IMG/VR virus record: IMGVR_UViG_2925891887_000008
DNA length: 38,557 nucleotides
Strand: one strand, 5' to 3'
From: a virus
Taxonomy: Duplodnaviria > Heunggongvirae > Uroviricota > Caudoviricetes
Shown here piece by piece: positions 3,281-38,557 of this stretch. The notes under the pieces are model-generated. The model worked only from the letters and a program-made list of their open reading frames with translations, was not told the origin of the DNA and searched no databases. Position numbers and translations under genes: made by a program. Within the stretch, counting starts at the first letter, position 1. The number at the start of each line of letters is the position of its first letter.

Positions 3281-3302
3281 TGGCGACAAAATGGCGGCAG
3301 CG
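3281..3302. repeat. Prophage attachment core, left copy (TGGCGACAAAATGGCGGCAGCG)
   Basis: 22-bp sequence repeated at 38518-38539 with one mismatch (A/G at position 11); directly abuts the ogr stop codon. Confidence 0.6.
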
Positions 3303-3518
3303 TCAAAGAGAGAGCGCCACCTGTCCTGATTTCATTGGATGCGGCTGAACCGGATTTGACTCTTTTGGCGTTGCAATCGAACGAACAAAAGTTTCATGGG
3401 TAACAAAAGTATGGCTGCAGTTAATATTCTGGCACTGGTTGTAACGCTCTTTGGTCAATGAAGATACCTGAAAACTGCTGCGAGTATGGGCGGCACTTCC
3501 ACACAGTGGGCAAATCAT
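3303..3518 (-). CDS. ogr: Late transcription activator Ogr (zinc-finger)
   Basis: MICPLCGSAAH...KERYNQCQNINCSHTF resembles P2 Ogr (CPLC...CQNxNC); start taken at the internal Met that gives a 71-aa product. Confidence 0.85.
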   Translation of the reverse strand: MICPLCGSAAHTRSSFQVSSLTKERYNQCQNINCSHTFVTHETFVRSIATPKESNPVQPHPMKSGQVALSL

Positions 3519-3611
3519 CATTTTTCGAGTTCTCCCCATTTTTGCTAAATTCACAATAATGATACCGCATTATTCCATTTTGCAAACTTAAAAGTTCTCC
3601 ATTGCGAAGAA

Positions 3612-4712
3612 TCATTCCATTTCGAAATCATCAATCCTCACTTCAAGCTCCAGACTGGTCGTAAAACCGTTATCCGGGCTGACGGTATGCGTCAGAGTCG
3701 TAATGGTCCATTCCGCATCATCTATCGGCTGTTTAAAGCCACTGACTTTCACTGGCATTTCCGTGTAGAGATCTGCCCGACCTTCCGCCAGTTGTAGCGA
3801 GAATGACGCAACGCCGCGTTGCAGGCGTTCCCACTGCATTTTCGCCGCTCGTTCGGCGTTGCTCCGGTTGGCATAAGTGCGATTAAGTACCAGCACGTTT
3901 TCATCCGTACCCACCAGGTAATCGCCCTGCTTCGCTTCCGGCTCTTTCTTCTGCTTCTTAGTCCTGCGCTTACGCTTCACCGTGGTGCTTTCTTTCTTCG
4001 AGGGTTCGCGAGTATGCAACCAGCTGGCAATTACGCCCGTGTAAGCTCCGCGATCTGCCAGGGTAAAGCGGTGACTGTCGCCGTCCTTACGTGTGATAGT
4101 GATCACCGGCAGTGGTTTACCGCTGGCACTTTTACCCTGTCCCTGTCGGATGAATAACAGATTGCCATTTTTCACTGACGCGATAGCACCGTACTGGCGC
4201 GCCAGCCGCATCAGAAAACTGCCGTCACTCTCATTAGTCTGGTCTATATGTTCCACGGGCTTATCCGACAGGTCATTACCCAGTGCCATCTTCAGCTTGT
4301 GACGCGCGGCTATTTCCTTGACCACTTCCCCGACAGTGGTCTTGTGCCACGACTTTTCACGGCGGGTATTCAGCGTTTCACGAAAATCAGCACTTCGCGC
4401 CCGGATAGTCAGGCGGTCCGGTGCGCCAGTGTGTTCAATCTCGTCCACCGTGAATGCCCCTTTCGGGAAAAGCGGCTGCCCCTTCCAGCCCAGCGCCAGC
4501 GTAATGACCGCACCACGGCGCGGCAGCGCTATTTTTCCATCGGCGTCGTCCAGCTCCAGATCAAGCTGGTCCGCTTCAAAGCCCCGGTTATCCGTCAGCG
4601 TCAGCCTCATCAGGCGGTTATCCAGCACAGTGGTGATATCCCTGCCCTCAATACTGATGCTGAATGCGGGAGTTTTGTTGCCTTTGTTAAGCAGTTCAGA
4701 GCTGAAATTCAC
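3612..4712 (-). CDS. D: Tail protein D (late control gene D)
   Basis: 366-aa ORF at the P2 gene D position, downstream of U and T. Confidence 0.85.
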   Translation of the reverse strand: MNFSSELLNKGNKTPAFSISIEGRDITTVLDNRLMRLTLTDNRGFEADQLDLELDDADGKIALPRRGAVITLALGWKGQPLFPKGAFTVDEIEHTGAPDRLTIRARSADFRETLNTRREKSWHKTTVGEVVKEIAARHKLKMALGNDLSDKPVEHIDQTNESDGSFLMRLARQYGAIASVKNGNLLFIRQGQGKSASGKPLPVITITRKDGDSHRFTLADRGAYTGVIASWLHTREPSKKESTTVKRKRRTKKQKKEPEAKQGDYLVGTDENVLVLNRTYANRSNAERAAKMQWERLQRGVASFSLQLAEGRADLYTEMPVKVSGFKQPIDDAEWTITTLTHTVSPDNGFTTSLELEVRIDDFEME

Positions 4713-5194
4713 GACAGCAGCCCTCCCACCGTTTTACTGATATCACTTAAGGCAGATGTTGCCGTGTCCTGCAGATTATTCAGTTGCGTACTGAGATCAC
4801 CGAACATATCGGACAGGGATTCATCCACCCGTTTGAGCGACAGGGTGAACTCAATCCGCCGCGGCATACCGTCGCGGAAAAACTCCGTTTTAGTCAGATT
4901 CAGTCCCTCAATCACATACATGCCGTAAATCGTGCCGCTGCCTTCAATCAGGGGCCATGCTTTTCCCTGTTCTGCCATCTGCTCCAGAGCCAGCAACGAC
5001 AGCCTGCCGCCCGTTATCTCCGGCATAAGAACACCAGAAAGCGTCAGCATGTCGTTGTCCGGTCCCAGAAACTGCGTGGACGGACGACGGTTTACCCGGC
5101 TGTTTGCCGCATGTCGCCAGCTGCGTTGATACTGCAGTTCCTGATACGGAACGGTGCGCAGCATAAACACGTACAATCCCAGCACCATCATCAT
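4709..5194 (-). CDS. U: Tail protein U
   Basis: 161-aa ORF overlapping the T stop and D start by 4 bp each, in the P2 T-U-D order. Confidence 0.8.
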   Translation of the reverse strand: MMMVLGLYVFMLRTVPYQELQYQRSWRHAANSRVNRRPSTQFLGPDNDMLTLSGVLMPEITGGRLSLLALEQMAEQGKAWPLIEGSGTIYGMYVIEGLNLTKTEFFRDGMPRRIEFTLSLKRVDESLSDMFGDLSTQLNNLQDTATSALSDISKTVGGLLS

Positions 5195-8697: not shown

Positions 8698-8751
8698 TTT
8701 GTTGTCCTGTAAATTGGGTTCTGGCGCGGAATCCCGCGCCGTTCAGATACA

Positions 8752-10555: not shown

Positions 10556-10969
10556 TTATCTGCTTGCAGGGAAAACAGGCCAAATAATATCAGGTGCGGT
10601 GCTGGTATCTGTTGCCGTCACAGCCTCGATATAATCCAGCACAACGTTAAGTCGGGTAGTTTCCTCTTGCGTCAGTTTGCGCCCGGCCTGCAGCTTTAAC
10701 TGAATCACGCTGATATTGACCATTGCTGCGTCTATCAACGACTGTTTTTTCTGTTCAGCGTCAGCTACCAGTTCATCATGAGAACGTTCCGGAGTGGGTG
10801 GTGCAGTAAATACCCCGTCTGAATACGCCCAGCCGATTCCGGGCTGCTCACTGATATCAGAAATATTAATGAGCTGCAGATTATCCGGCACAGTGAATTC
10901 ATCCTCGCCATCCCAGACAATGACATTCACAACCATCCCATTTTCAATAACTGCATATGACGCATTCAT
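10556..10969 (-). CDS. Tail fibre assembly protein
   Basis: ATG MNASYAVIENG... overlaps the stop of the tail fibre gene by 1 nt (TAATG); the track ORF has an upstream TTG extension. Confidence 0.7.
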   Translation of the reverse strand: MNASYAVIENGMVVNVIVWDGEDEFTVPDNLQLINISDISEQPGIGWAYSDGVFTAPPTPERSHDELVADAEQKKQSLIDAAMVNISVIQLKLQAGRKLTQEETTRLNVVLDYIEAVTATDTSTAPDIIWPVFPASR

Positions 10970-12888
10970 TATGCAAACTCCTCGATAATACAAACCCCAT
11001 CAGCACCTTTCCCGCCCGTCATACTGGTTCCGCTATAACCTGCATCGTATGCACCACCTCCGCCTGAACCAAATGCCCTGCCTCTAACGCCACCGCCAGC
11101 GCCTGCGCGTCCACCGCCACCCCAGTACGATGTTCCGCCTTCACCGCTGACGCCGATATTTCCGGACTGACCGTCGCCTCCATCTCCACCAGTGATGCGG
11201 ATATCGCCAGTACTCGGCACACCTCCGTTACCGCCGTTTGTGTTTGTAACACCCACTTTCCCGCCACCTTCGCCACCAGGAGCAATTAACGATGCGAATA
11301 CGCTATTCCCGCCCCTGGTGCCGTTCGTTGCACTAACACCACCGGCCCCACCTGCGCCGATAGTGACTGGATAACTATTCTGTGTCGGGGTCATTATTGA
11401 AATTATTGTTCCACCGGCCCCACCGCCAGCACCGAAAAACGTTTCATTATTGGATGTAGCCTTGCAGCCGCCCCCTCCGCCACCGCCGCCCGTTATTGTG
11501 ACCCTGATCCGTTTTGTTTCTGGTGATGGGGTATACGTACCTGATGACGCGAAAGCCCGGGTACTCAGCCGGCGTCCCACGTATCCGCTTGTATCTCCCA
11601 AACCAAGATAACGAATAACCTCCTGTTTGCTTGTTTTAGCCAGAATATCCCGTCCAACATTAGTCAGGGTTGTCAGGCTGGCTGTATCATTCCCCGTAAA
11701 ATACGGTAGTTTGTCTGCCGCAGTGGCAAGGCCTGCCAGTGCGGTCAGTGTGGCGTCGGCAGGTTGTTTTCCATTGGCAAGGTCATATACAGCCTTCACA
11801 GCTTTTGGTGTGGCAGCCTGCGTTTCTGACGTGCTGTTAGTGGCGCTGCTGAGTTGCACGGTACCTTTTACCGTCAGTGAAGCTGCAGGCACATCCGTTA
11901 TCTGGCTCCACGGGTGCGTGTGACTGACAGGTGCCTTACCTGCTGCAAGGTCATATGCCGCCTTCACTGCCTTTGGTGTGGCAGCCTGCGTTTCTGACGT
12001 GCTGTTAGTGGCGCTGCTGAGTTGCACGGTGCCTTTTACCGTCAGTGAAGCTGCAGGCACATCCGTTATCTGATTCCACGGGTGTGTGTGACTGACAGGT
12101 GCCTTACCTGCTGCAAGGTCATATACAGCCTTCACTGCCTTTGGAGTGGCAGCCTGCGTTTCTGATGTGCTGTTAGTGGCGCTGCTGAGTTGCACGGTGC
12201 CTTTTACCGTCAGCGAGGCTGCAGGTACACCTGTTATCTGATTCCACGGGTGTGTGTGACTGGCGGATGCTTTACCTGCTGCAAGATCATATGCAGCCTT
12301 CACAGCCTTCGGTGTTGCGGCCAGTATTTCGGATTCACTGTTGGTCGCACTGCTTAACTGAGTAAAACCTTTTGCGGTCAGCGAGGCGTCCGGGTGACGT
12401 CGTGACTGTTCGTGCTCTGATATTTTGTCATCCACATACTTGCGGGTTGCCAGCACTACAGCAGGGTCGATTTTCAGGATGATATTGTCCGTACTGCTGG
12501 TAATCAGCACCATGCGCACGGTCTGGGTACGCCCACTGCCTTCAGCCAGTTGCGGCTTATAGCTTTCCGGGCAGTTACCCACGGCAATCAATGCCCCGGA
12601 CTCATCAAACAAGCCCACTTCACGTATCCACCAACCGCCCTCGTTTTCAGGGATCACCTGTTCAGCAATAATCTGGCTGCTGTTCTGCGGGTCGATATAA
12701 AGCATATTCAGCGCAGCCCGGCGTTTCTCATTTACCAGTGCCGTCTGCTTTGCGTCCGGCGTTGGCAATACTCCGCCGCCATCGCCCACCGCCATATGGG
12801 TAATTTTTAGCGGCACACCGAGCGCGGCGGCGCTGGCAAGTTTCGCCGCGCCAATATCCGTCAGCAGGGTATAAAATTTTGTGCTCAT
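10969..12888 (-). CDS. H: Tail fibre protein (P2 H-like N-terminus, internal 56-aa repeats, Gly-rich C-terminal domain)
   Basis: 639-aa ORF; N-terminus MSTKFYTLLTDIGAAKLA... is typical of P2-family H; the C-terminal roughly 170 aa are very Gly-rich. Confidence 0.85.
   Translation of the reverse strand: MSTKFYTLLTDIGAAKLASAAALGVPLKITHMAVGDGGGVLPTPDAKQTALVNEKRRAALNMLYIDPQNSSQIIAEQVIPENEGGWWIREVGLFDESGALIAVGNCPESYKPQLAEGSGRTQTVRMVLITSSTDNIILKIDPAVVLATRKYVDDKISEHEQSRRHPDASLTAKGFTQLSSATNSESEILAATPKAVKAAYDLAAGKASASHTHPWNQITGVPAASLTVKGTVQLSSATNSTSETQAATPKAVKAVYDLAAGKAPVSHTHPWNQITDVPAASLTVKGTVQLSSATNSTSETQAATPKAVKAAYDLAAGKAPVSHTHPWSQITDVPAASLTVKGTVQLSSATNSTSETQAATPKAVKAVYDLANGKQPADATLTALAGLATAADKLPYFTGNDTASLTTLTNVGRDILAKTSKQEVIRYLGLGDTSGYVGRRLSTRAFASSGTYTPSPETKRIRVTITGGGGGGGGCKATSNNETFFGAGGGAGGTIISIMTPTQNSYPVTIGAGGAGGVSATNGTRGGNSVFASLIAPGGEGGGKVGVTNTNGGNGGVPSTGDIRITGGDGGDGQSGNIGVSGEGGTSYWGGGGRAGAGGGVRGRAFGSGGGGAYDAGYSGTSMTGGKGADGVCIIEEFA
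11700..12390. repeat. Four tandem 168-bp (56-aa) in-frame repeats inside the tail fibre gene
   Basis: Repeat unit GGTCATAT(A/G)C(A/C)GCCTTCAC...GGCAGCCTGCGTTTCTGA recurs with period 168 bp at 11781, 11949, 12117 and, more degenerate, 12285. Confidence 0.8.
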
Positions 12889-15312: not shown

Positions 15313-16083
15313 AGGGAAAGGTTGCCATCAATAGCAAGCAGTAGACAGCCTTTGTAATTGTATTAGACATAGAACAAATGCCTTTCAATGGTCTGCGTTA
15401 GAGCATTAATACGTTGCAAAAGGTCGAATGACGTTGCGCAAGTTAAGAAGTTCAATGCTCTTAAAAAAGCACTTGAAAGCAACGCCTTTAATTATTAAAA
15501 GCCAATTAATTTAGGCGGTTACTATGTTATCTTTGACACAAAAGATGTTTATTGACAATATATAAGTTCAATCTAACAAGGAGAAAAATTATGCCAAATG
15601 AAAATCTTGATATTGACTCAAGGACTACCGAGCAATTATACGAATGGTATTTGCAAGGAAATTTGATAGTCAATAGACGTTATCAAAGGAAACTTGTATG
15701 GTCTCTAGAAGAAAAGACTTCTTTAATATCTTCTATGCTGCAACAATATCCTATTCCGTTATTATTATTTGTTACCATCAATGAACAAAGAGAAATATTG
15801 GATGGAATGCAAAGATTAGAAGCAATTATGAGCTTCATCGAACAGAGATTTTCATTAGATGGACAATATTTTGATTTGGACTCTATAGCTTTAACAAAAC
15901 AACTTAAAGATAATGGAACTTTAATTCAGAAAGAACCAATCCTTTCCCGTGATTCTTCAGCAATTATTGCACGTTATCGATTTGCAATATCAGAATATAG
16001 CTCCACAAATGAAAATATTGACGAAGTATTCAGACGAATAAACTCAAACGGGAAGATTTTATCCAAACAAGAATTACGTAGTG

Positions 16084-16092
16084 CAGGAACAG
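16084..16092. repeat. IS1 target-site duplication, left copy (CAGGAACAG)
   Basis: Identical 9-mer immediately flanks both IS1 ends. Confidence 0.85.
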
Positions 16093-16147
16093 GGTGATGC
16101 TGCCAACTTACTGATTTAGTGTATGATGGTGTTTTTGAGGTGCTCCA

Positions 16148-16423
16148 GTGGCTTCTGTTTCTATCAGCTGTCCCTCCTGTTCAGCTACTGACGGGGTGGT
16201 GCGTAACGGCAAAAGCACCGCCGGACATCAGCGCTATCTCTGCTCTCACTGCCGTAAAACATGGCAACTGCAGTTCACTTACACCGCTTCTCAACCCGGT
16301 ACGCACCAGAAAATCATTGATATGGCCATGAATGGCGTTGGATGCCGGGCAACCGCCCGCATTATGGGCGTTGGCCTCAACACGATTTTCCGCCATTTAA
16401 AAAACTCAGGCCGCAGTCGGTAA
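16148..16423 (+). CDS. insA: IS1 InsA
   Basis: 91-aa [26 protein letters not shown]... typical of InsA. Confidence 0.85.
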
Positions 16424-16845: not shown

Positions 16846-16860
16846 GTTGGAGTCATTACC

Positions 16861-26710: not shown

Positions 26711-27337
26711 ATGGATATCGAAAAGCTAAAAGAATTTTACGAAAAACTTTACTTTCAGGAAACGGAAAATAAAGACAAGATTTACAACAGAATTCAAATG
26801 ATATTTGGATTAATAGTAATCGACGCAACTATCGTAACATATCTGCTTAAAAACACATCCTTTGAAAATCATGCATTCTTTGCCTGCATTGTTATAGGAC
26901 TTTCATTATTATCAGTGTTTTTTATTTATAAAGCCTGCATGCTCCTAAAAAAAGCATTTTGGGGTAATGAATTCAAATACATTCCCAAACCTAAGGAAAT
27001 AGACGAATACTACAATGGCCTCATTAAATATGAAGCAGACTATAAAAAATATTGTGATAATAATGGGCTTACCTATAATGGTGAGCACTCATCAAGTAAA
27101 AAGTTCAATGAATACTTAGTAAAACAACTAGTAGAGTGTACTAGTTGGAATACTAAGAAAAATGAAATGAGAACAAGTCAAATATATCGAGCCACTAAAT
27201 TCTTTTTTTTCTCACTAATTCCATTAGTGATAGCGGTTGGCTTTTTTTTAGCGATGGATCTCGATTCAGCCTCGCCAAGGAAGACTAATGAGCCACATTT
27301 CATTATTATACCTGTAGATAATATCAGGAGATTATGA
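26711..27337 (+). CDS. AT-rich cargo membrane protein (208 aa, about three TM helices), unknown function
   Basis: RBS GGAG, ATG at 26711; hydrophobic segments at about residues 30-46, 55-73 and 164-182. Confidence 0.5.
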   Translation: MDIEKLKEFYEKLYFQETENKDKIYNRIQMIFGLIVIDATIVTYLLKNTSFENHAFFACIVIGLSLLSVFFIYKACMLLKKAFWGNEFKYIPKPKEIDEYYNGLIKYEADYKKYCDNNGLTYNGEHSSSKKFNEYLVKQLVECTSWNTKKNEMRTSQIYRATKFFFFSLIPLVIAVGFFLAMDLDSASPRKTNEPHFIIIPVDNIRRL

Positions 27338-27462
27338 TGGGAAAAGCCCCTACACCTAACAAGCCACCAGCGAAGACTCCAACTCCGCCGACACCGCCGA
27401 CACCGCCTAAATCTAGGCTAGTGAGAGACGATGATTCGAAAGCCAAAAGCAAAAGAGGTTAA
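27334..27462 (+). CDS. Proline-rich micro-protein a (42 aa; KTPTPPTPPTPPK core, SRLVRD motif)
   Basis: ATG overlaps the upstream stop (ATGA), RBS AGGAG; 9-bp in-frame repeats. Confidence 0.4.
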   Translation: MMGKAPTPNKPPAKTPTPPTPPTPPKSRLVRDDDSKAKSKRG

Positions 27463-27468
27463 AGTATC

Positions 27469-27642
27469 ATGATAAAGCCCAGCAACGAAGGAACTGGAAA
27501 ACCAAATTCTACAAGTAAATCACCTGTACCGCCTCAGCCGCCTCAGCCGCCTCAGCCGCCTCAGCCGCCTCAAACAAGGTTAGTACGAGAAAGCTTTGGA
27601 GAATACATTTCAAAGAGAGATACGAAAAATGACAAAAAATAA
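27469..27642 (+). CDS. Proline-rich micro-protein b (57 aa; (PPQ)5 core, TRLVRE motif)
   Basis: RBS AGAGG, ATG at 27469; (CAGCCGCCT)x4 tandem repeat. Confidence 0.4.
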   Translation: MIKPSNEGTGKPNSTSKSPVPPQPPQPPQPPQPPQTRLVRESFGEYISKRDTKNDKK

Positions 27643-27736
27643 CGAGCAAAAACCACCACCACCACCACCACCACCACCACTACCACCATCGTCCCGCATG
27701 CTATTTGATCACGCGGCCCCCCCTAAGAAGAAATAA
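27629..27736 (+). CDS. Proline-rich micro-protein c (35 aa; P9-L-PP core, SRMLFD motif)
   Basis: ATG at 27629 overlapping the end of b; (CCA)n tract. Confidence 0.35.
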   Translation: MTKNNEQKPPPPPPPPPLPPSSRMLFDHAAPPKKK

Positions 27737-27778
27737 CCTTAAGCCTGCGACTTAGCAGGCTTTCTTCATTAGCGCGCG

Positions 27779-27797
27779 CTCGTATCCCCGCCACGCC
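27779..27797. other. Candidate cos site (19-nt cohesive end)
   Basis: CTCGTATCCCCGCCACGCC closely resembles my recollection of the P2/186 cos core (complement GGCGTGGCGGGGA...); lies between Q and A as expected. Confidence 0.35.
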
Positions 27798-28139
27798 TGC
27801 CCGCTTTATGTAGTGGTTTTCATGCAGGTGCATGATCTACGCAAAAGCCCGCCAGTTCTGGCGGGCCTTAGCAAAAACGATCCTCAAACGATCATGCAAT
27901 CTCATGCAGCATAGACATGCACAGACGAGTAAAGCGAATCGGACTTTACGCAAGGTGAACTCCTCAGCGGGCATAATCAGTATGTCGGAAGATCTCTAAA
28001 AATGAATAATTCGGTTAACAGGTATGCTTACAAAAGCATATATTTGATTAAAAATCATGTAAGGGGGAGGATCTCAAACTGAATCGCCACGGGTTTTACA
28101 AATTTCGATAGTCTCTCTAACGTTTCGGCTGAGGTCAAA

Positions 28140-28565
28140 ATGAAAAGCTTTTACGTATTAATTTTAATTCTGGTTGCAAGCTTTGTTAGCGTCCCAGTTC
28201 AGGCGGTAACAGCTAAAAACTATGAGAAAGGAACTAAAGCTCAACAGAAATCAATATCTTACCTTTCATGTGCATTCTATGGCAGTAGCACACAATTAGA
28301 TCCTAGCTACACGGAGCAAGTACCTACAGCCGATATCAAGATATTACAGAAAGCAGCTTACCACGCTTACAACGATGCGCTCTCATACTTTGGCTATGAG
28401 GAACCAGATCACGAACAACGCATAATTGATTATGCTGAATTTGTGGCGTCGCAAGAAGCTGTGTTATGGGATAAGCCGGGAATGAATGGAAAGCAGGTAA
28501 CACTAATTGCTCGTTCTCTCTACAATGAGAGTAACTGTAACTTGTTACTGGACTCAATTAAGTAG
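28140..28565 (+). CDS. AT-rich cargo secreted protein (141 aa, Sec signal peptide), unknown function
   Basis: RBS GAGGT, ATG at 28140; N-terminal hydrophobic signal with ...VQA/V cleavage-like site. Confidence 0.5.
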   Translation: MKSFYVLILILVASFVSVPVQAVTAKNYEKGTKAQQKSISYLSCAFYGSSTQLDPSYTEQVPTADIKILQKAAYHAYNDALSYFGYEEPDHEQRIIDYAEFVASQEAVLWDKPGMNGKQVTLIARSLYNESNCNLLLDSIK

Positions 28566-28724
28566 GAAAAAGATGGTATTTTGCCCGTAGTTTCAACCTT
28601 AATCTCCGAACCTGTCGCAGAACGGGCGTTCACTCATCAAATAAACGCCACACCTAACGCCTCACTGTACTCGTTGTTCAACCTTGCTGACGCCAGAACC
28701 AAGTTCAGACGCCAGCAACTTTTC

Positions 28725-28958
28725 TTAATGCAGCCAGCTGTCGTCTTCCCACACCTTCTGCATAATCTTCATCACTTGTTTTCTTTCTTCGTCCAGTTGC
28801 AGTCCGGTCAGTTCCACACCGTTAGAGCTACCTTTGCGGATGCGAATTACCGTTTTGGGATACAGGGGGCGCAGATTGCGGTAAAGCTCGGATTCAAGGG
28901 CGTCCAGGGTAGACTGGCTAATCTTCTGCTCTTTATCGATCATTATTTCAATGCGCAT
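28725..28958 (-). CDS. dinI: DinI-family protein (DNA-damage-inducible protein I-like)
   Basis: MRIEIMIDKEQKIS...LDALESEL...KVWEDDSW parallels E. coli DinI; start taken at the internal Met. Confidence 0.75.
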   Translation of the reverse strand: MRIEIMIDKEQKISQSTLDALESELYRNLRPLYPKTVIRIRKGSSNGVELTGLQLDEERKQVMKIMQKVWEDDSWLH

Positions 28959-28968
28959 AAAGGTCACC

Positions 28969-29157
28969 TCAGCTGATGACATCCATTGAGCGGTTGTATT
29001 CGTGGGTTCTGATTTTTGCCATGAGTTCATCTGTCAGTTCAGAAACCCACTGCAAAGCCAGCCCCTTCTCTTCATCACTACACTCACTAGCCGCTACAAG
29101 CTTAAGAAAAAAATCAATGCGCTGGAGCTTCAAAGACTCCAAAAAATAGTCCTGCAT
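28969..29157 (-). CDS. Small SOS-controlled ORF (62 aa) upstream of dinI-like gene; possible Tum-like antirepressor N-module
   Basis: RBS GGAGG, ATG at 29157, LexA box about 45 bp upstream. Confidence 0.4.
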   Translation of the reverse strand: MQDYFLESLKLQRIDFFLKLVAASECSDEEKGLALQWVSELTDELMAKIRTHEYNRSMDVIS

Positions 29158-29200
29158 CTTTCCTCCTATGACACCACAAGCAATACTGTATACATAACCA

Positions 29201-29216
29201 CTGTTTATATTTACAG
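29201..29216. promoter_or_regulatory. LexA box (CTGTTTATATTTACAG)
   Basis: Perfect CTGT-N8-ACAG with AT-rich spacer, upstream of the minus-strand small ORF and dinI-like gene. Confidence 0.6.
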
Positions 29217-29310
29217 CACATAATAATCTTACTGATGTAAAACGTTTTTTTACGTTCATTAGCCTGATATGCCTGGTATTATTAAGAGCACGAATTGTTA
29301 ACCCGCGTAA

Positions 29311-31725
29311 TTAATACAGGTTTCGCCACTTATCATCTTCCTGCAAACGCTGGTTCCGATAGAAGATACGCAGGCCTGCTCCTGACGGAATACTGCCGCC
29401 GCGAAGGAGTAAATCGACCTCTTTCTCGCTGCCATTAAATCCTCTGGACTTCAGTTCATAGACGAGCTGCTGTCGCTGATGGTCTGTAATTCGCTGTTTG
29501 TAGTCTTTACGCCGTTTCGGTTTCACCAGGCGTAACCTTGCAGCCAGTTCCCGGCGCTCTTTTTTGCTCATACTGTGCAGGTAATCGTGCAACTCCTTGT
29601 CATCCATGCGGGTAATGTCCGTCCTAGTATCCCCATCAGCTGATTTGTCTTTCCCTTGTTGGTTCAAATTTTCAGCAAGGGGACAGTTATTGCCACGAGT
29701 CCAAGGGGCGCAAGCGCCCTGGTCGGCTGCCGCCTCCTGAACGTCAACGGCCTTACGAACCATTTTCCACTTCACCGCATGAGTGCAGATCTTGCCCTCT
29801 GCAATGGGTGACCAGATGCCATAAATACGAATACCGTGATCGCCATATGCGGTCGGTTCTTCGTTGATTTCATAAGCAGTTCTGATGAGGTGATATTTGC
29901 GGGGAACCAGTACGCCTCCCTGCTTCATGATGTAGGTGGCAAAACAACCAGCATCGGCAGCAGCCAGGATTGCATCAAGGCGCGGGTTATCCAGTACCGG
30001 CGCACCTGCTTTTTTGTCCCCCTGTTGCCTTGCCGCCTGACCAGCCAGCAATCGCAGTTCACGGTAAGCCTGACGCCCCGGAATGCCAAAGAAGCGGAAT
30101 TGCTGAACACGATGCAGAGACGCCCAGGCATTAACGTATTCAGCGTTATCACGCAGGGATTTACCCGTTTCCTTGCTGATCTCGCCAGCCAGACCACGCC
30201 CGTCAATGTTCTTACTGATGTATTTCGCGATGTAGCTTGTTGGCGTACCTTTGCGCGGGTTTATCAGCTCAGACTTAAAGCGTGGTCCCGTGTTATTACC
30301 CAGCTCCTCGCGGTCTTCACGAATGGCAAACTTACGCAACAAAGCAGTAATGGTGCGGCGATCTTTTTTGCGCATAAAACACAACAGGTGCCAGTGAACT
30401 GTACCGTCATGATGCGGCTCAGCCACCCGCACGCCATACCAGCGCAATCCGGCTTTGTGCATCGCCTTACGAAATGCAGCAAACATGCCGACCAGATAAT
30501 CACTGCTTTGTCTTACCGTCGTATTTGTCCAGGTCGGGTTGGGCCTGCCGTTATTTAGCGTGGAATGGAAACGTGACGGACAGGTGATGGTGTAGAAAAC
30601 GGCGCAGTCACCGCGCATTTCCGCGATAAGCTCCAGACCTTTAACACAGGCCATCATCTCATTGCGGCGATGCGCAGGGTTGCTGCTGCTGGCGTTTACC
30701 ACATCCTCCATGTCCAGCGTGTCGCCGTCTTCGTTCACCAGTTCATGAGAACGGAAAAACTCCAGCGACTTACGGCGCTGCTCACGTTTATGCATCATGG
30801 CTTCATAGCTGACATAGGGAGATGCTTTTTTGCTGACCAGGCAAACAGCACGCAACTGCTCTTCCCGCCATTCGCAACGCATCTTCCATAATTTCCGGTA
30901 CCACCAATCGGCGCACAACATACGCGCCAGCGAACCCGGAATGAGTTCATAGGGCACGGGTTTACGGCGGTTTCTTTTCCGGCGGAGTTGCTCAAACGCA
31001 GGCGGTATGACATCCAGTCGCAGGGTTTCTGCTGCCACCTTTTCCCATGTCTTGCGGATTTCTTCTGGCTTAACGTCATCGGTGGCATACAAATCGCCAC
31101 AAGCTGCATCAAGGCACATGCTCATATGCGCAGCAACAAGGGTGGACAGGCGTTTCACCTGATCCTGACTCATTTCAGGCAGAATCAGCAGGCCGTCCAG
31201 CCCTTCATGGCTTGCCATAAAGCGAAAAGAAGTGGATAGCTGACTGTCGCGTACATGCTCCAGCCGTTCCAGACATGGCTTAATCGTCTCACGTAAATAG
31301 CGGGAATAAGCCTTTGGCCTGCCAAGGCTGCTGAAGTATTCAATACGTTGCATCAGCGGCCTGCTGATATGGGAAGGCTGGGCGTTAACGTCTGCCAGAA
31401 TGACCATGTCCGGGTTAAAACGCTGCTGCTCATGCGCCAACTTTGCCCGGCTAATGAACTTATCCTGCTCCATTTCGCGCTGGACAGGATCACGGGATTC
31501 ATTAAAGAAATAACGCTCCCAAACCTGATCACTCAGTGCCTCGCGGCGCAGTTGTTCCTGCTCGTTATCGGCAGCGTACAGAGTGATCAGGTTTGAAAGC
31601 GCAGAAACCGGCGCAACTTCCGCCGGGTCCAGATAAGGGTTAATAGCCTTTTTCGGGCTGTTCCATGAGAATGCTGCGGCGGCCTCGTTAAAGCCGCTGC
31701 AGTTGTTCATATCAGCATGGCTCAT
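29311..31725 (-). CDS. A: Replication initiation endonuclease A (rolling-circle)
   Basis: 804-aa ORF at the P2 gene A position, upstream of cos. Confidence 0.85.
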
Positions 31726-32579
31726 GCACGCACTCCGTACACGGCAGAACTATCCACGCCACGCGAAGGATCAAATCCCACCCAGCAGCGCGCCCCAGAA
31801 ACAGCGATGATTTCTGTTGCAGATTTACTCTCGCCAGCCGACACACCGATGCTGCGTTGTGCCTTGATGTAGTGGTGAGTGAAATTTCGATACAGCGAAC
31901 GGATCAGGGATGTGTCACTGTTAGAAACAATGACTGGATGACCTTCTGATGATCGATATTCAAGAACAGATGCCAGGTGATACTGGTCATCTTCAGTGAA
32001 GCCGTTAGTGTGATAGCCGGAAAACGTACCGTCATAAGGCGGATCGCAATACACCACATCCCCCACCTGCAGCATCGCCAGCGTTTCATCAAAGCTGGCG
32101 CAGATAAACGTTGCTTGCTGGGCTTTCTCTGCAAATGCGCGAATTTCTTTTTCAGGGAAATACGGATTTTTATAATTACCGTATGGAATGTTGAAATGCC
32201 CGCTCTTGTTATAACGACATAACCCACGGTAACCATGACGATTGAGATACAGGAAATATACCGCTTTCATGAAATCAGTAATTTCAGTGGAGTAATTAAA
32301 CTCCTGCCTTATGTTGTAATAAGCCAACTCCCTGTTTGCTTCCTCAAATAAAGCTCTGGCACGAGATATAAACGCCTCGCAATCAGCAGCAACCTTTTTA
32401 TAGAGGTTGATTAAATCAGGATTAATATCCGCAACAAGATAGCTGGGGTAATCCGTCTCCATCATCACAGCACAGGAACCCGCGAAAGGTTCAACCAGTC
32501 GCGGGCCAGCAGGAAGGTGTTTTTTCAGTTCGGACATAATGGCGGTTTTATTTCCCGCCCATTTCAGGATGGTGCTCAT
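31722..32579 (-). CDS. dam: DNA adenine methyltransferase (Dam-like, N6-adenine MTase)
   Basis: LKWAGNK N-terminus and DPPY catalytic motif ([12 protein letters not shown]); start at MSTILKW overlaps the upstream stop. Confidence 0.85.
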
Positions 32580-32803
32580 ACAGCACCTCCGTTGTAATGT
32601 TTGCCTTTCAGCTCTGCAATTTCCTGGCAGGTAATGCAAAGCTGCACACCCGGAATGGCACGGCGGCGTGCTGGCGGAATTGGCGCTTCACACTCAATGC
32701 AAAGCACGCGAGACACGCCCGGTGTTTTGGCACGGGCAGCACGGATATGGCGCTGGCGTTCTTCTTCAACGCGCTGCTGTACGAGATCCATTGCATCAGC
32801 CAT
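32576..32803 (-). CDS. TraR/DksA-family C4 zinc-finger protein
   Basis: 75-aa ORF with CIEC...CITC Cys pairs. Confidence 0.7.
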   Translation of the reverse strand: MADAMDLVQQRVEEERQRHIRAARAKTPGVSRVLCIECEAPIPPARRRAIPGVQLCITCQEIAELKGKHYNGGAV

Positions 32804-33042
32804 TAGTGGATCTCCTGCGCTTCGTTCTGGATTGCTTCAGCAGTCACACGCAGCAGTTCTGCCGCTTCCACGTGGTTTAGCTGACGGGATGAGATATGAC
32901 ACGCCAGGCTATCAAGGCGAGCTGCCATTGCTTCAGCCCTTGCCCGGCGTTCTTCCAGACGAGCCACTGTCAGTAAAATATTAAGCCCTGCATCATCCGA
33001 TCCGGTTTTAGTCGTGAGGATCTCAATATTACGCATAATCAA
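32803..33042 (-). CDS. Hypothetical early phage protein (79 aa)
   Basis: ORF in the early operon; no recognisable motif. Confidence 0.4.
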   Translation of the reverse strand: MIMRNIEILTTKTGSDDAGLNILLTVARLEERRARAEAMAARLDSLACHISSRQLNHVEAAELLRVTAEAIQNEAQEIH

Positions 33043-33103
33043 TTCTCCTGAATTTAGATAAAGGGATGCTCGGCGGGTTTACGCCATTAATTTCATTAGT
33101 TGG

Positions 33104-33445
33104 TTAATTCGGCATGGTTAGCCGTCTGGGAAATAAGCTCACCACTGCACGAAAATGATTCATTGCTTTAATCAACTCCCGCTTTTCGTCAGTGGTCAGC
33201 TCATTGATGCTGATGCTATGACGTTCAGCCGGAATTTTTGCCATAAAGAATATGGCTGCCAGTGCTCGTTTATTTTGTTCGTTATTGATATCCCGTGGAT
33301 CACGCATATCTTTAATAAACCGCTCAAGCTCTGACTCAATATTCAGGCCAAAAACTTTTGCCCTTAATTCCGCTATGTGATTAAGTCCATTCAGGCGTTC
33401 ACCGGGGCTTAATGGAACAGTCGCCGCAGCGCCTTCAATAGCCAT
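33104..33445 (-). CDS. Hypothetical early phage protein (113 aa)
   Basis: ORF in the early operon between cII and the TraR-like gene; start uncertain. Confidence 0.4.
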   Translation of the reverse strand: MAIEGAAATVPLSPGERLNGLNHIAELRAKVFGLNIESELERFIKDMRDPRDINNEQNKRALAAIFFMAKIPAERHSISINELTTDEKRELIKAMNHFRAVVSLFPRRLTMPN

Positions 33446-33609
33446 TTGTTCCCCCGTTTTTTCGTAGATAGTTCTGCCAGCAATTCATCTTGTGAACGGC
33501 ACGGATGCCAGCGTTTACCATCCTCACCCATGATCCAGCCGTGACCGTAGTGCATTGCCGGGCTTTGTTTTACCAGCAGCGATGCAAATGATGGTTCTTT
33601 CGTCAGCAT
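33409..33609 (-). CDS. Hypothetical small early protein (fil/dhr position in 186)
   Basis: ORF immediately downstream of cII; start taken at an internal Met to avoid overlap with cII. Confidence 0.3.
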   Translation of the reverse strand: MLTKEPSFASLLVKQSPAMHYGHGWIMGEDGKRWHPCRSQDELLAELSTKKRGNKWLLKALRRLFH

Positions 33610-33616
33610 AAGCACC

Positions 33617-34126
33617 TCACAGCAAACCGAATGAAGCACCGAGGCCAGTCACGGTATCAACTGCACTCGCCATTGCAGGATTAGCCTGTAAACGGGCCTG
33701 CAATGAAACAGCAGCCAGCGCCATCAGTCGTGTTACAGAGTTAATGCTGCTGATAGCATCACGACGACCGGCACTAGTTTTTACATCACCAGATACCGCA
33801 CCTGCTGCAACACGTCCGATCTCTGCAGTTGCGCTCATGACGTAATGCGGCAGTTTCTCTTTTGCAACCTCATTAATCGGTACACATGGCAGGCAGTGAA
33901 TCTGTGCCAGAAAACCATCTACCAGCGTTGAATCTTCAGTCAGATCGGTAAGCAGCCAGATTTCTGGTGCGGTTAATAAATGAGGCTGAGCTGGGTTCAG
34001 CTTGTTCCGCAGAATCTGCACATTCATGCCTGCACGTTCTGCCAGTTGCACCAGATTGTGGCGCAGTGCAAATGCACGACAGGCTTCATCAAAATGTGGA
34101 TGTTTGGAAACTTGGTAATCAAACAT
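33617..34126 (-). CDS. cII: CII regulatory protein (186-like)
   Basis: [24 protein letters not shown]... closely matches remembered 186 CII. Confidence 0.75.
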
Positions 34127-34158
34127 GGTCAATGCCTCTGATGTATTTCAGAATCGAA

Positions 34159-34380
34159 CTAATTAAGGTTTAGATTGCATTCTGAAAGCGCATCAACGGT
34201 CATGGCTGCTATGTTGATCATCACTTTTTCGCGTTTTTTATCTTTGCGCAAACGGTGACGGATAAGGCGTCCATCAGCCAACATGTCATTGATGGTATCG
34301 ATGGACAGTCCTGTCAGCTCGCTATAGCGTTCAATAGTCACATGAGGCGTGGTAAGAGTGATTGAAATGTTAGGTCTCAT
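34159..34380 (-). CDS. apl: Apl/Cox-like excisionase and transcriptional regulator
   Basis: 73-aa basic protein, first gene of the early operon, divergent from cI. Confidence 0.6.
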
Positions 34381-34505: not shown

Positions 34506-35075
34506 ATGAATTTGGAGAAAGGCGGACGAGGCGCTATAGAGCGCATGGTAGAAGCTTATGGATTCAAAACTCGACAGGCGTTGTGCGATCATTTAGGAAT
34601 CTCTAAAAGTACACTCGCTACACGCTACATGCGTGACTCATTCCCAGCAGAATGGGTAATCCAGTGCGCCCTTGAAACGGGCACCTCGCTTAATTGGCTC
34701 ACAACTGGACATGGTTCAAAGCAAACTTCAGGTAATACAAATACGATGGAAGTTGCTAAATATGTATTATCTGATGGTGCCTTGCGTGAAGACGGTTTTT
34801 ATATTTTTGATAAGGGATTTCTACCCTCTACGTTTAAAAAACCTTTTGTCATCACAGATAACAATTCTGAATTTATTTGTGATAAAGAATTTGATGATAT
34901 ACGTGATGGTAAATGGGTAATAAGTATTGATGGCGAAATAACAATCCGCGACATTACTCGTTTACCCGGTGGAAGAATCTTCGTTGAAGGTGGAAACAGA
35001 ACCTTCGAGTGCAAGATAGAAGATGTTGAAATAATTGGAAAAATTATAAGTTTGACAATTAAGTACGTTAGGTAA
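34506..35075 (+). CDS. cI: CI immunity repressor (186-like)
   Basis: 189-aa protein with N-terminal HTH-like region (EAYGFKTRQALCDHLGISKSTLATRY), RBS GGAG; the track ORF starts 6 nt upstream at a GTG. Confidence 0.8.
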   Translation: MNLEKGGRGAIERMVEAYGFKTRQALCDHLGISKSTLATRYMRDSFPAEWVIQCALETGTSLNWLTTGHGSKQTSGNTNTMEVAKYVLSDGALREDGFYIFDKGFLPSTFKKPFVITDNNSEFICDKEFDDIRDGKWVISIDGEITIRDITRLPGGRIFVEGGNRTFECKIEDVEIIGKIISLTIKYVR

Positions 35076-35090
35076 TACCGGGAGGAAACT

Positions 35091-35282
35091 ATGCTTGGTA
35101 AGGTATTTTTTGTGGTTTTATCATGCTCTTTGTTATTAAACCCACTAACTACCTATGCTAAAAATTATCCTTGTTCTGGGAAAAAGGGAGGTGTCTCTCA
35201 CTGTACCTCCGATGGAAAGTTCGTTTGCAATGATGGAACTATTAGTAAATCAAAAAAAATCTGTACTAAAAACTCGCGATAA
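35091..35282 (+). CDS. Small secreted Cys-containing peptide (63 aa), unknown function
   Basis: Strong RBS GGGAGG, signal peptide (...TYA/KN), five Cys in the mature part; AT-rich. Confidence 0.4.
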
Positions 35283-35433: not shown

Positions 35434-36748
35434 GGGTCTTCCCTTGTTGTGGTGGCTGAAGGCATGATAATGGTGTATTTAATCGCCAGAGGTCACCGCC
35501 ATGGACGAAAAGTCCCTCTACGCTCATATTCTCAACCTGTCCGATCCGTGGCAGGTAAAGTCCCTTTCTCTCGATGAAAATGCCGGTTCTGTTACTGTCA
35601 CTATTGAGATCGCTGAAAACACCCGGCTAGCCTGTCCGACCTGCGGTAAATCCTGTTCTGTTCACGATCACCGTCATCGTAAATGGCGCCATCTTGATAC
35701 CTGCCAGTTCACCACTATTGTTGAAGCCGATGTTCCACGAATTATGTGTCCGGAGCATGGCTGCCTGACGTTGCCTGTTCCGTGGGCTGGCCCCGGAAGC
35801 CGGTATACGTTGCTATTCGAATCGTTCGTTCTCTCATGGCTGAAAATCAGCACCGTTGATGCTGTCAGGAAGCAACTTAAGCTCAGTTGGAATGCGGTTG
35901 ACGGCATTATGACCCGGGCAGTTAAGCGAGGTCTTGCCCGGATAAAAAAGCCATTATCCGCCCGTCATATGAATGTGGATGAGGTCGCCTTTAAAAAAGG
36001 ACATCGTTACATAACGGTGATCTCCGATCGCGATGGTCGGGCGCTGGCCTTAACGGATGATCGCGGCACAGAGAGTCTTGCCGGCTATCTTCGCACGCTC
36101 ACTGATGGGCAGTTGCTGGCTATCAAAACGCTCTCAATGGACATGAACGCGGGCTATATAAGAGCAGCGCGTATCCACTTACCCAGTGCGGTTGAGAAAA
36201 TCGCCTTTGACCGCTTCCATGTGGCGAAGCAACTGGGCGAGGTAGTTGATAAAACCCGTCAGAATGAACATCCGCACCTCCCTGTTGAAAGCCGACACCA
36301 GGCAAAAGGAACCCGCTTCCTGTGGCAGTACAGCGATAAGTGGATGACCGAATCCCGGCAGGAAAAGCTGATGTGGCTGCGTGCACAGATGAAGCTGACG
36401 AGCCAGTGCTGGGCGCTGAAAGAGCTGGCAAAGGATATCTGGAACAGGCCATGGAGCGAGGAAAGACGGAGTGACTGGCAGAGATGGTTGGCGCTGGCGG
36501 CTAACAGTGACGTTCCCATGATGAAAAATGCCGCGAAAACGATAGGAAAAAGGCTGTACGGGATCCTGAATGCGATGCGACACAGTGTCTCAAACGGAAA
36601 TGCGGAGGCACTTAACAGCAAGATCAGGCTGCTGAGGATAAAAGCCAGGGGATACCGAAACCGGGAGCGCTTTAAACTGGGGGTGATGTTCCACTACGGA
36701 AAGCTGAATATGGCGTTCTGAGCCTTCCCACCATGATCGGGGAAGACC
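35434..36748 (+). mobile_element. ISL3-family insertion sequence (1315 bp)
   Basis: Imperfect terminal inverted repeats GGGTCTTCCC..TGGTGG at both ends, single transposase ORF, 8-bp duplication. Confidence 0.8.
35501..36721 (+). CDS. ISL3-family transposase
   Basis: 406-aa ORF with N-terminal zinc-ribbon-like CPTCG...CPEHGC and a DDE-like core. Confidence 0.8.
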   Translation: MDEKSLYAHILNLSDPWQVKSLSLDENAGSVTVTIEIAENTRLACPTCGKSCSVHDHRHRKWRHLDTCQFTTIVEADVPRIMCPEHGCLTLPVPWAGPGSRYTLLFESFVLSWLKISTVDAVRKQLKLSWNAVDGIMTRAVKRGLARIKKPLSARHMNVDEVAFKKGHRYITVISDRDGRALALTDDRGTESLAGYLRTLTDGQLLAIKTLSMDMNAGYIRAARIHLPSAVEKIAFDRFHVAKQLGEVVDKTRQNEHPHLPVESRHQAKGTRFLWQYSDKWMTESRQEKLMWLRAQMKLTSQCWALKELAKDIWNRPWSEERRSDWQRWLALAANSDVPMMKNAAKTIGKRLYGILNAMRHSVSNGNAEALNSKIRLLRIKARGYRNRERFKLGVMFHYGKLNMAF

Positions 36749-36756
36749 CTTATACA
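36749..36756. repeat. ISL3-family element target-site duplication, right copy (TTATACAT)
   Basis: Identical to 35426..35433. Confidence 0.75.
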
Positions 36757-36792
36757 TACAGTAAAAATGCTCTCTATTGGAGGGCATTTTTT

Positions 36793-37824
36793 ATGGCAGT
36801 ACGAAAACTCACCACAGGAAAATGGCTTTGCGAATGTTACCCCGCCGGACGTAGTGGGCGTCGTGTGCGTAAACAATTCGCCACCAAAGGCGAAGCACTG
36901 GCTTTTGAGCGTCACACGATGGAAGAAACCGAAGCAAAGCCCTGGCTGGGCGAATCAGTAGATCGTCGAACCCTGAAAGACGTGGTTGAGCTATGGTTCA
37001 AACTACATGGTAAATCTCTGACTGCTGGGCAGCATGTCTATGACAAATTGCTGCTGATGGTTGACGCTCTGGGCAATCCCCTTGCAACCGATCTCACATC
37101 TAAAATGTTTGCCCATTATCGAGATAAACGACTGACAGGTGAGATCTACTTCAGCGAGAAATGGAAGAAAGGGGCCAGCCCGGTCACCATTAACCTGGAG
37201 CAAAGCTATCTAAGTAGTGTTTTTAGCGAACTATCCCGCCTGGGCGAATGGTCGTATCCAAACCCACTGGAGAACATGCGAAAATTCACCATCGCAGAAA
37301 AAGAGATGGCATGGCTTACCCATGAGCAGATTGTTGAACTGCTGGATGATTGCAAACGTCAGGACCCAATTCTGGCACTGGTAGTCAAGATATGCTTAAG
37401 CACAGGCGCACGCTGGCGAGAAGCAATAAACCTAACCCGATCACAGGTGACCAAATACCGAATTACCTTTGTAAGAACGAAGGGGAAGAAAAACAGAAGC
37501 ATCCCTATCAGTAAAGAGCTTTATGAAGAGATCATGGCGCTTGATGGGTTCAATTTCTTCACAGACTGCTATTTTCAATTTTTATCCGTGATGGAAAAAA
37601 CGTCTATCGTGCTCCCTCGCGGTCAACTTACACACGTTCTGCGTCATACGTTTGCGGCGCATTTCATGATGTCGGGTGGAAACATCCTTGCTTTGCAAAA
37701 AATCCTCGGACATCACGACATAAAAATGACTATGCGTTATGCTCATCTATCACCTGATCACTTAGAGACAGCTCTTCGTTTCAATCCACTAGCAACTTTG
37801 GATGTTACTAAATCAGATTCTTAA
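36793..37824 (+). CDS. int: Tyrosine integrase (P2/186 family)
   Basis: MAVRKLTTGKW...LSTGARWREA...HVLRHTFA...YAHL has the tyrosine-recombinase catalytic residues; RBS GGAGG. The track ORF has a spurious upstream extension. Confidence 0.9.
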   Translation: MAVRKLTTGKWLCECYPAGRSGRRVRKQFATKGEALAFERHTMEETEAKPWLGESVDRRTLKDVVELWFKLHGKSLTAGQHVYDKLLLMVDALGNPLATDLTSKMFAHYRDKRLTGEIYFSEKWKKGASPVTINLEQSYLSSVFSELSRLGEWSYPNPLENMRKFTIAEKEMAWLTHEQIVELLDDCKRQDPILALVVKICLSTGARWREAINLTRSQVTKYRITFVRTKGKKNRSIPISKELYEEIMALDGFNFFTDCYFQFLSVMEKTSIVLPRGQLTHVLRHTFAAHFMMSGGNILALQKILGHHDIKMTMRYAHLSPDHLETALRFNPLATLDVTKSDS

Positions 37825-37834
37825 AGGTTCAAGC

Positions 37835-38557
37835 ATGGTTAAGTTTTTGTTTCAATTCCCAATATTCGACTTCTCCTTAACATTTGATATTATCGAGACG
37901 TTAATCACTCATAGCGAATCATCAATCGCTAAGGGTATAGCAGAATATAAAGACAAAGGACCTGAAGAATATATAATTGAAATATCTCCGGAAGATGGTG
38001 TATATCAGTCAATTGATCATTACATGGGACTCACCAGCTCATCGCTAGATCTCGATGAAATGTTTTTAGAATACTACCCAAGTATTATCCGCAGGTCAGT
38101 ATTCTTAACTATATTCGGAATTTTTGAGCACGAAATAGAAAAATTCTGTAACAACTTTGCTAATAGACATCATTCTCCTATAAATGTTTCAGATCTCAAA
38201 GGAAGTGGATTTGAGAGGAGCCATCTATTTATCAAAAAAATGATAGGGATGAAGTCAACATCCCACTATTCGAATATCAAAAAAATAACAAAATTAAGAA
38301 ACAGTTGTGCGCATAATGATGCAAAATACTTAGAAAACGATGGGCAAAATATTAAAAGCATTATTGAACTTATAGAAAAATATCCTGATTTTTTTAAAAA
38401 AGATGGAAAACAGGTCCTATTTATGGAGGGCTCGTTAAGCATGATCTTGAACTCATTCAAAGAGTATCTTTCTGATGTTGAAAGAGCCTTAGATGAATTC
38501 GAAAAACAAAGCACTAGTGGCGACAAAGTGGCGGCAGCGGTTGGCATTACCCCGTAA
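37835..38557 (+). CDS. AT-rich cargo protein (240 aa) with Rx4H (HEPN-like) motif; candidate abortive-infection/toxin RNase
   Basis: ATG at 37835; motif KLRNSCAHND fits the RNxxxH HEPN signature; the ORF crosses the att core and ends in host-side DNA. Confidence 0.45.
   Translation: MVKFLFQFPIFDFSLTFDIIETLITHSESSIAKGIAEYKDKGPEEYIIEISPEDGVYQSIDHYMGLTSSSLDLDEMFLEYYPSIIRRSVFLTIFGIFEHEIEKFCNNFANRHHSPINVSDLKGSGFERSHLFIKKMIGMKSTSHYSNIKKITKLRNSCAHNDAKYLENDGQNIKSIIELIEKYPDFFKKDGKQVLFMEGSLSMILNSFKEYLSDVERALDEFEKQSTSGDKVAAAVGITP
38518..38539. repeat. Prophage attachment core, right copy (TGGCGACAAAGTGGCGGCAGCG)
   Basis: 21 of 22 identity with 3281..3302. Confidence 0.6.

Follow-up and report, generated by a model that had tools for sequence, protein, structure and literature searches.

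The rybB locus and the ends of the prophage

The window, by which we mean the whole 38,557-nt stretch of IMG/VR record IMGVR_UViG_2925891887_000008, carries a P2-family prophage inserted next to the gene for the RybB small RNA (sRNA). On its left it holds ybjL (1382–3067; an open reading frame, ORF, of 561 residues) and rybB (3147–3225, plus strand), the latter a full-length match to Rfam RF00110 at 105.3 bits with a terminator hairpin that folds as expected; no tRNA gene was found in the window. Phage genes follow, beginning with the ogr/B-type late-gene activator (3303–3521, minus strand; Pfam Ogr_Delta, 5e-22, and the annotation of Escherichia coli AR_0019) and ending with the gene for a 186-type tyrosine integrase, int (36793–37824, plus strand; 343 residues, Pfam Int_N and Phage_integrase), and a cargo gene (37835–38557, plus strand). 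A first-pass annotation had described a P2/186-family prophage of about 35 kb that is inserted between rybB and rcdA and includes neither ybjL nor rybB, and had given the E. coli K-12 order as ybjL–rybB–rcdA; all of this proved sound, the element measuring 35,419 bp from core to core, two insertion sequence (IS) elements included, with P2-like content by PHROGs and Pfam matches.

Near each end lies one copy of a 22-bp imperfect direct repeat, TGGCGACAAAATGGCGGCAGCG at 3281–3302 and TGGCGACAAAGTGGCGGCAGCG at 38518–38539, with a single A/G mismatch at position 11. A search of the window at up to three mismatches returned these two places only, with 0 expected in shuffles. As had been noted, ogr adjoins the left copy, its stop codon abutting the repeat, and int and one cargo gene are found at the right copy, although this copy forms part of the cargo ORF, near its 3′ end, rather than adjoining it. 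If the 22-mer were the attachment core, duplicated by integration, the prophage would extend from 3281 to 38539 and begin 59 bp past rybB, as the first-pass annotation proposed; the repeat is real and direct, is far from a chance occurrence and has a copy close to either end of the run of phage genes.

The empty sites argue otherwise. Positions 2700–3700 of the window were searched against 5426 complete E. coli genomes, in 1114 of which the match runs on through ogr, so that ogr is joined to rybB and the site is occupied; in the remaining genomes it breaks off at position 543 of the query (window position 3242). Homology between the window and empty sites ends at about 3238–3242, some 40 bp before the left copy is reached and at neither 3281 nor 3302, and the empty rybB–rcdA locus has no match to the 22-mer at up to three mismatches. 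In the empty site of E. coli LY180, rybB and the core are followed directly by the rcdA stop codon, 4 nt beyond the end of the core, and the match ends exactly at this stop. Alignment to an empty site had been named beforehand as the check on the repeat, with one copy expected there; the locus holds none, and the junctions lie 42 and 91 bp away from the two copies.

The core was derived by anchored comparison of attB, attL, attR and attP on their shared sequence. It is 27 bp long, ATGGGTTTTTTGTT[RY]CT[R]AAATTTAT, as read from empty sites, the lysogen and two contiguous attP records. The attB core of E. coli is ATGGGTTTTTTGTTATCTAAAATTTAT; the attL core, at 3212–3238 on the plus strand, is ATGGGTTTTTTGTTGCCTAAAATTTAT, with the phage-type GCC. 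In the window only the attL core is present, and the attR core was seen in AR_0019, BL21 and Escherichia sp. E1V33, the last of which has an identical 27-bp core at attL and attR. AR_0019 is 100% identical to the window over 36750–38557 (its last 1808 nt) and continues past the window end with about 100 nt that contain two repeats resembling sites for integration host factor (IHF), a hairpin terminator and ATGGGTTTTTTGTTATCTAAAATTTAT, followed by rcdA; read through this genome, the attR core, with the host-type ATC, corresponds to positions 38631–38657. The right flank of the window itself would be expected to run on in the same way, with the hairpin CCCGTTTACATAAATGGG, then TTTTTTGTTATCTAAAATTTAT, then the rcdA stop codon, and the right junction most likely lies some 75–100 bp outside the window.

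Two records, Klebsiella phage KP12 (L004, 3500–3740) and IMG/VR contig L066, hold a contiguous attP in the order int, 22-mer, core, 22-mer, ogr, with cores reading ...GTTGTCTGAAATTTAT and ...GTTGCCTGAAATTTAT, respectively. This free-phage site is made up of the right-end arm, the core and the left-end arm of the prophage, and its P′ arm is identical to that of the window at 69 of 75 positions (KP12/L066). Both 22-mers lie inside phage DNA, the ogr-side copy 42 bp from the core and the int-side copy 92 bp from it in KP12 and 91 bp in AR_0019. An attP in which two 22-mers flank another core is impossible if the 22-mer is itself the single core, and between the right copy and rcdA there are 91 bp of phage sequence and a different, 27-bp core; we give the duplicated 22-mer next to no chance of being the attachment core, and the repeat does not bound the prophage.

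The 22-bp repeat as probable paired arm-type integrase sites

Each 22-mer consists of two TGGCGRCA units placed 11 bp apart, at 3281–3288 and 3292–3299 in the left copy (P′ arm, plus strand) and at 38518–38525 (TGGCGACA) and 38529–38536 (TGGCGGCA) in the right copy (P arm, plus strand, on the phage side of the attR core); the tandem pattern TGGCGRYRNNNTGGCGRYR occurs in the window at these two places only, with 0.02 expected. Both P2 and 186 have attP sites in which the core is flanked on either side by two or more direct arm repeats, the 186-type consensus being tgccGCCActt (PMC3448106); the reverse complement of this consensus, AAGTGGCGGCA, is contained without mismatch in the right 22-mer. 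Counted by eye against aagTGGCggca, agreement is 11/11 at 38526–38536, 10/11 at 3289–3299, 9/11 at 38515–38525 and 7/11 at 3278–3288, and the invariant TGGC of the consensus is present in all four units. From position, consensus match and homology to phage 186, we infer that the 22-mers are the P and P′ arm-type binding sites of Int. The mismatch at position 11, which had been expected to locate the strand-exchange region, falls between TGGCG units and is A, T or G among phages; it is the GCC/ATC difference within the core that locates the crossover (see below).

The 22-mers might instead be functionless relics, as would result if part of the int 3′ end had been duplicated next to ogr, with Int using the core alone or other sites. 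The int-side copy is indeed coding (GDKVAAA): the intact int of KP12, 813R9 and 4LV2017 ends in ATLPSGDKVAAAVGITP and a stop codon, so the P-arm sites are coded in the last codons of int, and conservation there and in P′ arms could be hitch-hiking. Against this, phage 186, which has another core (tRNA-Ile) and an Int 55% identical to that of the window, still has TGGCGAYARARTGGCGGYRG tandem units on both sides. The published arm consensus is matched exactly, the units are phased 11 bp apart, and the variable positions of the P′ copy, 11 and 20, lie outside the octamers. In addition, four upstream contexts meet the 5′ edge of the first TGGCGACA, namely intact int and three independent cargo insertions (the HEPN-like gene of the window, a 110-residue ORF in BL21 and the cargo of E1V33) that stop exactly there, a shared join that fits selection for intact arm sites. 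We consider relics improbable as an explanation. A single TGGCGACA downstream of the core in a further locus (L080) was tried as a third arm context and set aside; it is probably host flank of another genus.

Between the arms and the core there are sequences that resemble IHF sites. A candidate in the P′ arm (3248–3260, plus strand), AATCATGAGGTTA, has one mismatch to WATCAANNNNTTR, and the 200-bp attP of KP12 contains three one-mismatch matches clustered between the arms and the core, one of them equivalent to 3248–3260; the candidate sequences are AAACAATAAGTTA and AATCATGAGGTTA. Over the whole locus such matches are not above chance, and only their clustering in attP stands out. The arrangement parallels the IHF footprints of phage 186 and is suggestive only of IHF binding at these places. 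An 18-bp tandem repeat between the P arm and the core, two copies of CTAACTTATTGTTTT(A/C)AT, was also tried as a pair of Apl sites; it has no match in the cI–apl switch region and fits the IHF consensus better.

Taken together, we hold with a probability of roughly 0.9 that the element is a P2-family prophage with a 186/Fels-2-type switch, integrated at the 3′ end of rybB, and that the 22-mers are arm-type Int sites. Several points weigh against this. The window stops 74 nt short of the attR core, and the right junction is taken from another genome. The attL of the window reads GCCTA where known attP sites have GCCTG or GTCTG, and the 4 nt after the core are TCTA in the window as against GCCG in known attP. 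The role assigned to the arm sites has the three supports named above, and for one of them, phage 186, the sites are labelled ‘predicted’ in the record. The P-arm copy is part of a coding sequence and the P′ arm is near-invariant among few relatives, so that conservation discriminates poorly.

Strand exchange, the rebuilding of rybB and variation of the core

In the mechanism that we propose, the integrase would insert the phage at the 3′ end of rybB, between rybB and the rcdA stop codon, by recombination within the 27-bp core (ATGGGTTTTTTGTT-RY-CT-R-AAATTTAT), and rybB would be rebuilt intact by the phage copy. The circular phage has, in order, the 3′ end of int with its 22-mer, 91–92 bp, the core, 42 bp, the second 22-mer and the ogr stop codon. 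The N-terminal domain of the 186-type integrase would bind the TGGCGRCA pairs, one helical turn apart, leading to assembly of an intasome on attP, with probable IHF sites between the arms and the core, and the Apl/Cox-like protein would give directionality.

The first 14 bp of the core (3212–3225) coincide with the final 14 nt of the Rfam match to RybB, which are the end of the terminator stem and the T-tract, and the insertion does not lie 59 bp downstream of RybB, as had been claimed, but overlaps it. The phage supplies identical bases as the T-tract tail of its own hairpin terminator, CCCGUUUACAUAAAUGGG-UUUUUU, located 3′ of int (the int operon). Because the phage brings the same terminator-tail bases, RybB is unchanged in the lysogen. 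The rcdA gene is also intact, the RcdA protein accession being the same in an empty strain and in occupied AR_0019.

The phage and host cores of E. coli differ at two adjacent positions, GCC as against ATC. Prophages of this type have the phage GCC at attL and the host ATC at attR, and BL21 independently shows the same arrangement, which places the crossover to the left of this difference. Strand exchange would then fall inside ATGGGTTTTTTGTT, at window positions 3212–3225; the exact cleavage positions can likewise only be inferred.

The core of empty sites is polymorphic. It has ATCTA in most E. coli and Shigella (L090, L101 and L089, as against L093, L095, L098 and L099), and the phage-type GCCTG or GTCTG is found in the empty sites of E. 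ruysiae, E. whittamii and some E. coli-like contigs. Since GCCTG is present in empty sites of other Escherichia species, the phage core there equals attB. The polymorphism could be ancestral variation or the footprint of past integration and excision. One of these records, a 724-bp contig labelled Actinoallomurus acaciae (L095, NZ_JBHLZP010001226.1), carries the Escherichia rybB–rcdA empty site and is very likely assembly contamination.

About 70 of the 80 prophage contigs retrieved from IMG/VR with the Int protein (L006–L085) end exactly at the int stop codon, and the predicted boundaries of these records therefore exclude the P arm and the core. Nine of the 80 extended beyond the int stop; the rest carried no attachment-site information. 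In two contigs that share this Int, the sequence departs from the others immediately past the hairpin, L032 running into unrelated sequence (AAATGGTTATTTTTTTAGCC...) and L076 with a mutated int stop codon and another ORF; these may be insertions at secondary sites or further cargo insertions at the core. In Brenneria izbisi (L097, 5369–5393), an exact 25-bp match to the phage-type core, GGGTTTTTTGTTGCCTGAAATTTAT, stands after a gene terminator other than that of rybB. The gene before it resembles a cold-shock-protein gene, as judged on its 3′-end sequence alone, and the match may represent a secondary or alternative attB, or a coincidence of the kind that terminators can produce.

Gene content of the prophage

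Between the 22-mers the gene content is P2-like, with PHROGs late-gene matches at E-values from 1e-30 down to 1e-290, and the set and order of late genes (portal, terminase, scaffold, capsid ... sheath, tube, tape measure, U, D, ogr) are those of the P2 type. The whole prophage is 99.9% identical to that of AR_0019, whose PGAP annotation gives a complete P2-type gene order; the two copies differ by two IS elements (see below), one 9-nt indel and four mismatches. The late region occupies 3612–26626, as assigned from PHROGs and the PGAP annotation, and is interrupted by cargo and an IS1 at 15591–18143. It holds D, U, the tape measure, E/E′, tube, sheath, tail-fibre and fibre-assembly genes, together with baseplate, lysis, head, terminase and portal genes. 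Within the tail-fibre gene (10969–12888, minus strand), a tandem array at 11777–12322 contains 3.2 copies of a 168-bp unit at 92% matches, an in-frame repeat of 56 residues.

The early lytic operon (29311–34380, minus strand) encodes the Apl/Cox-like protein, CII, Fil, small ORFs, a Dam methylase and replication endonuclease A. Of these, the P2 A-type replication endonuclease (29311–31725, minus strand) matches PHROG 91 and CII (33617–34126, minus strand) matches Pfam Phage_CP76. The Apl/Cox-like excisionase-repressor (34159–34380, minus strand) has no Pfam match, and its similarity to Apl of 186 extends over 20 residues only; it is assigned as Apl-like, provisionally, from its match to PHROG 575, ‘Cox-like excisionase and repressor’ (6e-31). 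The divergent lysogenic operon opens (34506–35282) with a 186-type CI repressor (34506–35075, plus strand; Pfam Phage_CI_repr and Phage_CI_C) and an ORF of 63 residues (35091–35282, plus strand). The 186-type switch comprises a CI that has the CI_C domain, CII and the divergent Apl/Cox-like gene. For both operons the assignments also draw on the annotation of AR_0019.

The integrase is 99% identical to Int of KP12 over residues 1–336 and then diverges, ending DVTKSDS. Its first 45 residues align closely with Int of 186 (GKWLCECYP compared with GGWICELYP). N-terminal W, E and Y positions have been given as discriminators of 186-type integrases (PMC3448106), and the Int of the window matches at these positions, which were assigned from a pairwise alignment only.

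Cargo genes and IS elements

A GmrSD-like (DUF262-type) restriction gene (15591–18143, plus strand; Pfam GmrSD_N, 4e-19; PADLOC NsnA, 1e-21) lies between baseplate gene V and tail-completion gene S. It is intact in AR_0019, where it encodes 591 residues, and is split in the window by an IS1 of 768 bp (16093–16860, plus strand; Pfam DDE_Tnp_IS1, 2e-78) with a 9-bp target duplication and breakpoints taken from the comparison with AR_0019. The second IS is an ISKox3-like element of the ISL3 family, 1316 bp long (35434–36749, plus strand; Pfam DDE_Tnp_ISL3, 1e-55, and ISKox3 annotation), with an 8-bp target duplication. It separates the cI–orf63 operon from int, 36 bp before the int start codon, and is absent from AR_0019; no complete E. 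coli genome in the collection has its junction with the prophage. By uncoupling int from its promoters, this IS may impair int expression and immobilise the copy.

The element could be a defective remnant unable to excise, with its attachment-site architecture a matter of history, an explanation that concerns activity and is compatible with integration at rybB through arm-type sites. The ISKox3-like element does separate int from the promoters of the cI operon, IS1 breaks a cargo gene, and the E. coli B relative at rybB is heavily deleted. However, apart from the two IS elements and the few differences listed above, the prophage is identical to that of AR_0019, in which all late, lysis, replication and switch genes are annotated as intact; the IS transposase is read in the same direction as int, so that read-through expression is possible; and near-identical Int/attP modules are present in the isolated phages KP12 and 4LV2017. 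We think a remnant of this kind unlikely, but far from negligible.

A further cargo block (26711–29259), in the hotspot between the portal and replication genes, comprises, by the annotation of AR_0019, a DinI-like gene and several small genes that have no assigned function. Its matches are only weak or to proteins of unknown function, PADLOC giving a weak 2TM ‘Effector’ hit for one ORF and a weak PD-(D/E)xK hit for another. In BL21 this slot is occupied by the retron Ec86 (annotated as St85 family); a placement of Ec86 in the int–attR slot of E. coli B was considered and rejected, as it sits in the portal/replication hotspot.

The gene at the right end (37835–38557, plus strand) is AT-rich and encodes a HEPN-like protein of 240 residues. 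It is inserted in the 3′ end of int, so that its 3′-terminal 13 codons, SGDKVAAAVGITP, once encoded the C-terminus of Int and contain the P-arm sites, and the native last 14 residues of Int are replaced in the window. Homologues outside rybB-type prophages are without the SGDKVAAAVGITP tail, which is disordered in the AlphaFold model of the protein, and an Rx4H motif is invariant among homologues; a profile search against the sequences of solved structures found nothing. This variant is present in 24 of roughly 1100 E. coli genomes with a prophage at rybB. Elsewhere the int–attR slot holds the 110-residue ORF of E. coli B (BL21), another gene in E1V33 and orf69 in 186. We suggest tentatively, and at rather less than even odds, that the int/P-arm slot is a third cargo hotspot of rybB-type phages and that Int tolerates the loss of its C-terminal 14 residues; if so, the HEPN-like protein would be a prophage defence or abortive-infection nuclease from an uncatalogued family.

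Comparison with known P2-like phages

P2-like prophages at rybB are well documented. Rybb*W, Rybb*B (with retron Ec86) and Rybb*Cr sit at the ‘rybB ncRNA’ (Archer et al. 2011, PMC3032704), PhiECO1/2/3 and PhiSEN1 have been grouped by their rybB integration site (Nilsson et al. 2011, PMC3448106), Kpn38RybB has been placed ‘precisely within the gene for RybB’ (Hudson et al. 2014, PMC4048246), and hotspot #29 comprises Felsduovirus prophages within rybB (Hochhauser et al. 2023, PMC10121019). The rybB-integrating P2-like prophages and the Klebsiella phages 4LV2017 and KP12 share with the window the same rybB 3′ end beside rcdA, the 27-bp core, the 22-mers in the arms and the combination of P2-type late genes with a 186-type switch. 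The copy in the window differs from these relatives by the IS1 in its GmrSD-like gene, the ISKox3-like IS and the HEPN-like gene in the int–attR slot; the E. coli B relative differs from it by its heavy deletions and its retron.

Phage 186 has the same layout around its attachment site, B/ogr, arm repeats, core, (IHF, Apl), arm repeats, a small ORF, int and cI. Its GenBank record lists predicted Int arm-type sites of the form YAYCGCCAYTY, AATGGCGATAAAGTGGCGGTAG on the int side and AGTGGCGATAGAATGGCGGTGG on the B/ogr side, and IHF footprints on both sides of the core. The arm repeats of 186 and of the window have in common the TGGCG motif, the tandem arrangement and the 11-bp phasing, and CI, CII, Fil and an Apl-like protein are common to both. 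In contrast, the core of 186 is 36 bp of the 3′ end of tRNA-Ile (ileY), whereas that of the window is 27 bp over the rybB terminator, and the arm-to-core distances are about 77 and 81 bp in 186 but 42 and 91 bp in the window. Apl of 186 and the Apl-like protein are barely similar, and no Apl-type repeats were assignable in the window. The attP of P2 itself resembles that of the window in having a heterobivalent integrase, a 27-bp core, at least two arm repeats per side, and IHF and a Cox-type factor (PMC3448106). It differs in its arm repeats, tgTGGaCa as against the 186-type GCCA/TGGC; P2 also integrates between genes rather than in an RNA gene, and its switch is of the C/Cox type and lacks CII. 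The element adds one more member to a group that is already well described, and its attachment site is the 186 architecture with another core, nothing in it being new in kind.

This prophage is a common and documented element of E. coli, the rybB hotspot being occupied in about one in five (~20%) complete genomes. Its practical interest is modest: it carries defence-type cargo, a disrupted GmrSD-like gene and a HEPN-like gene, and this copy may have been immobilised by the IS before int. A long direct repeat need not be the attachment core, even when it is the one closest to the two ends of a prophage. In phages with heterobivalent integrases, the repeat made by the arm-type sites is longer and cleaner than that of the core, and it is internal to the element. 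Taking the 22-mer as the boundary here would misplace both ends, misread strand exchange, and miss the targeting of an sRNA gene and the rebuilding of its 3′ end.

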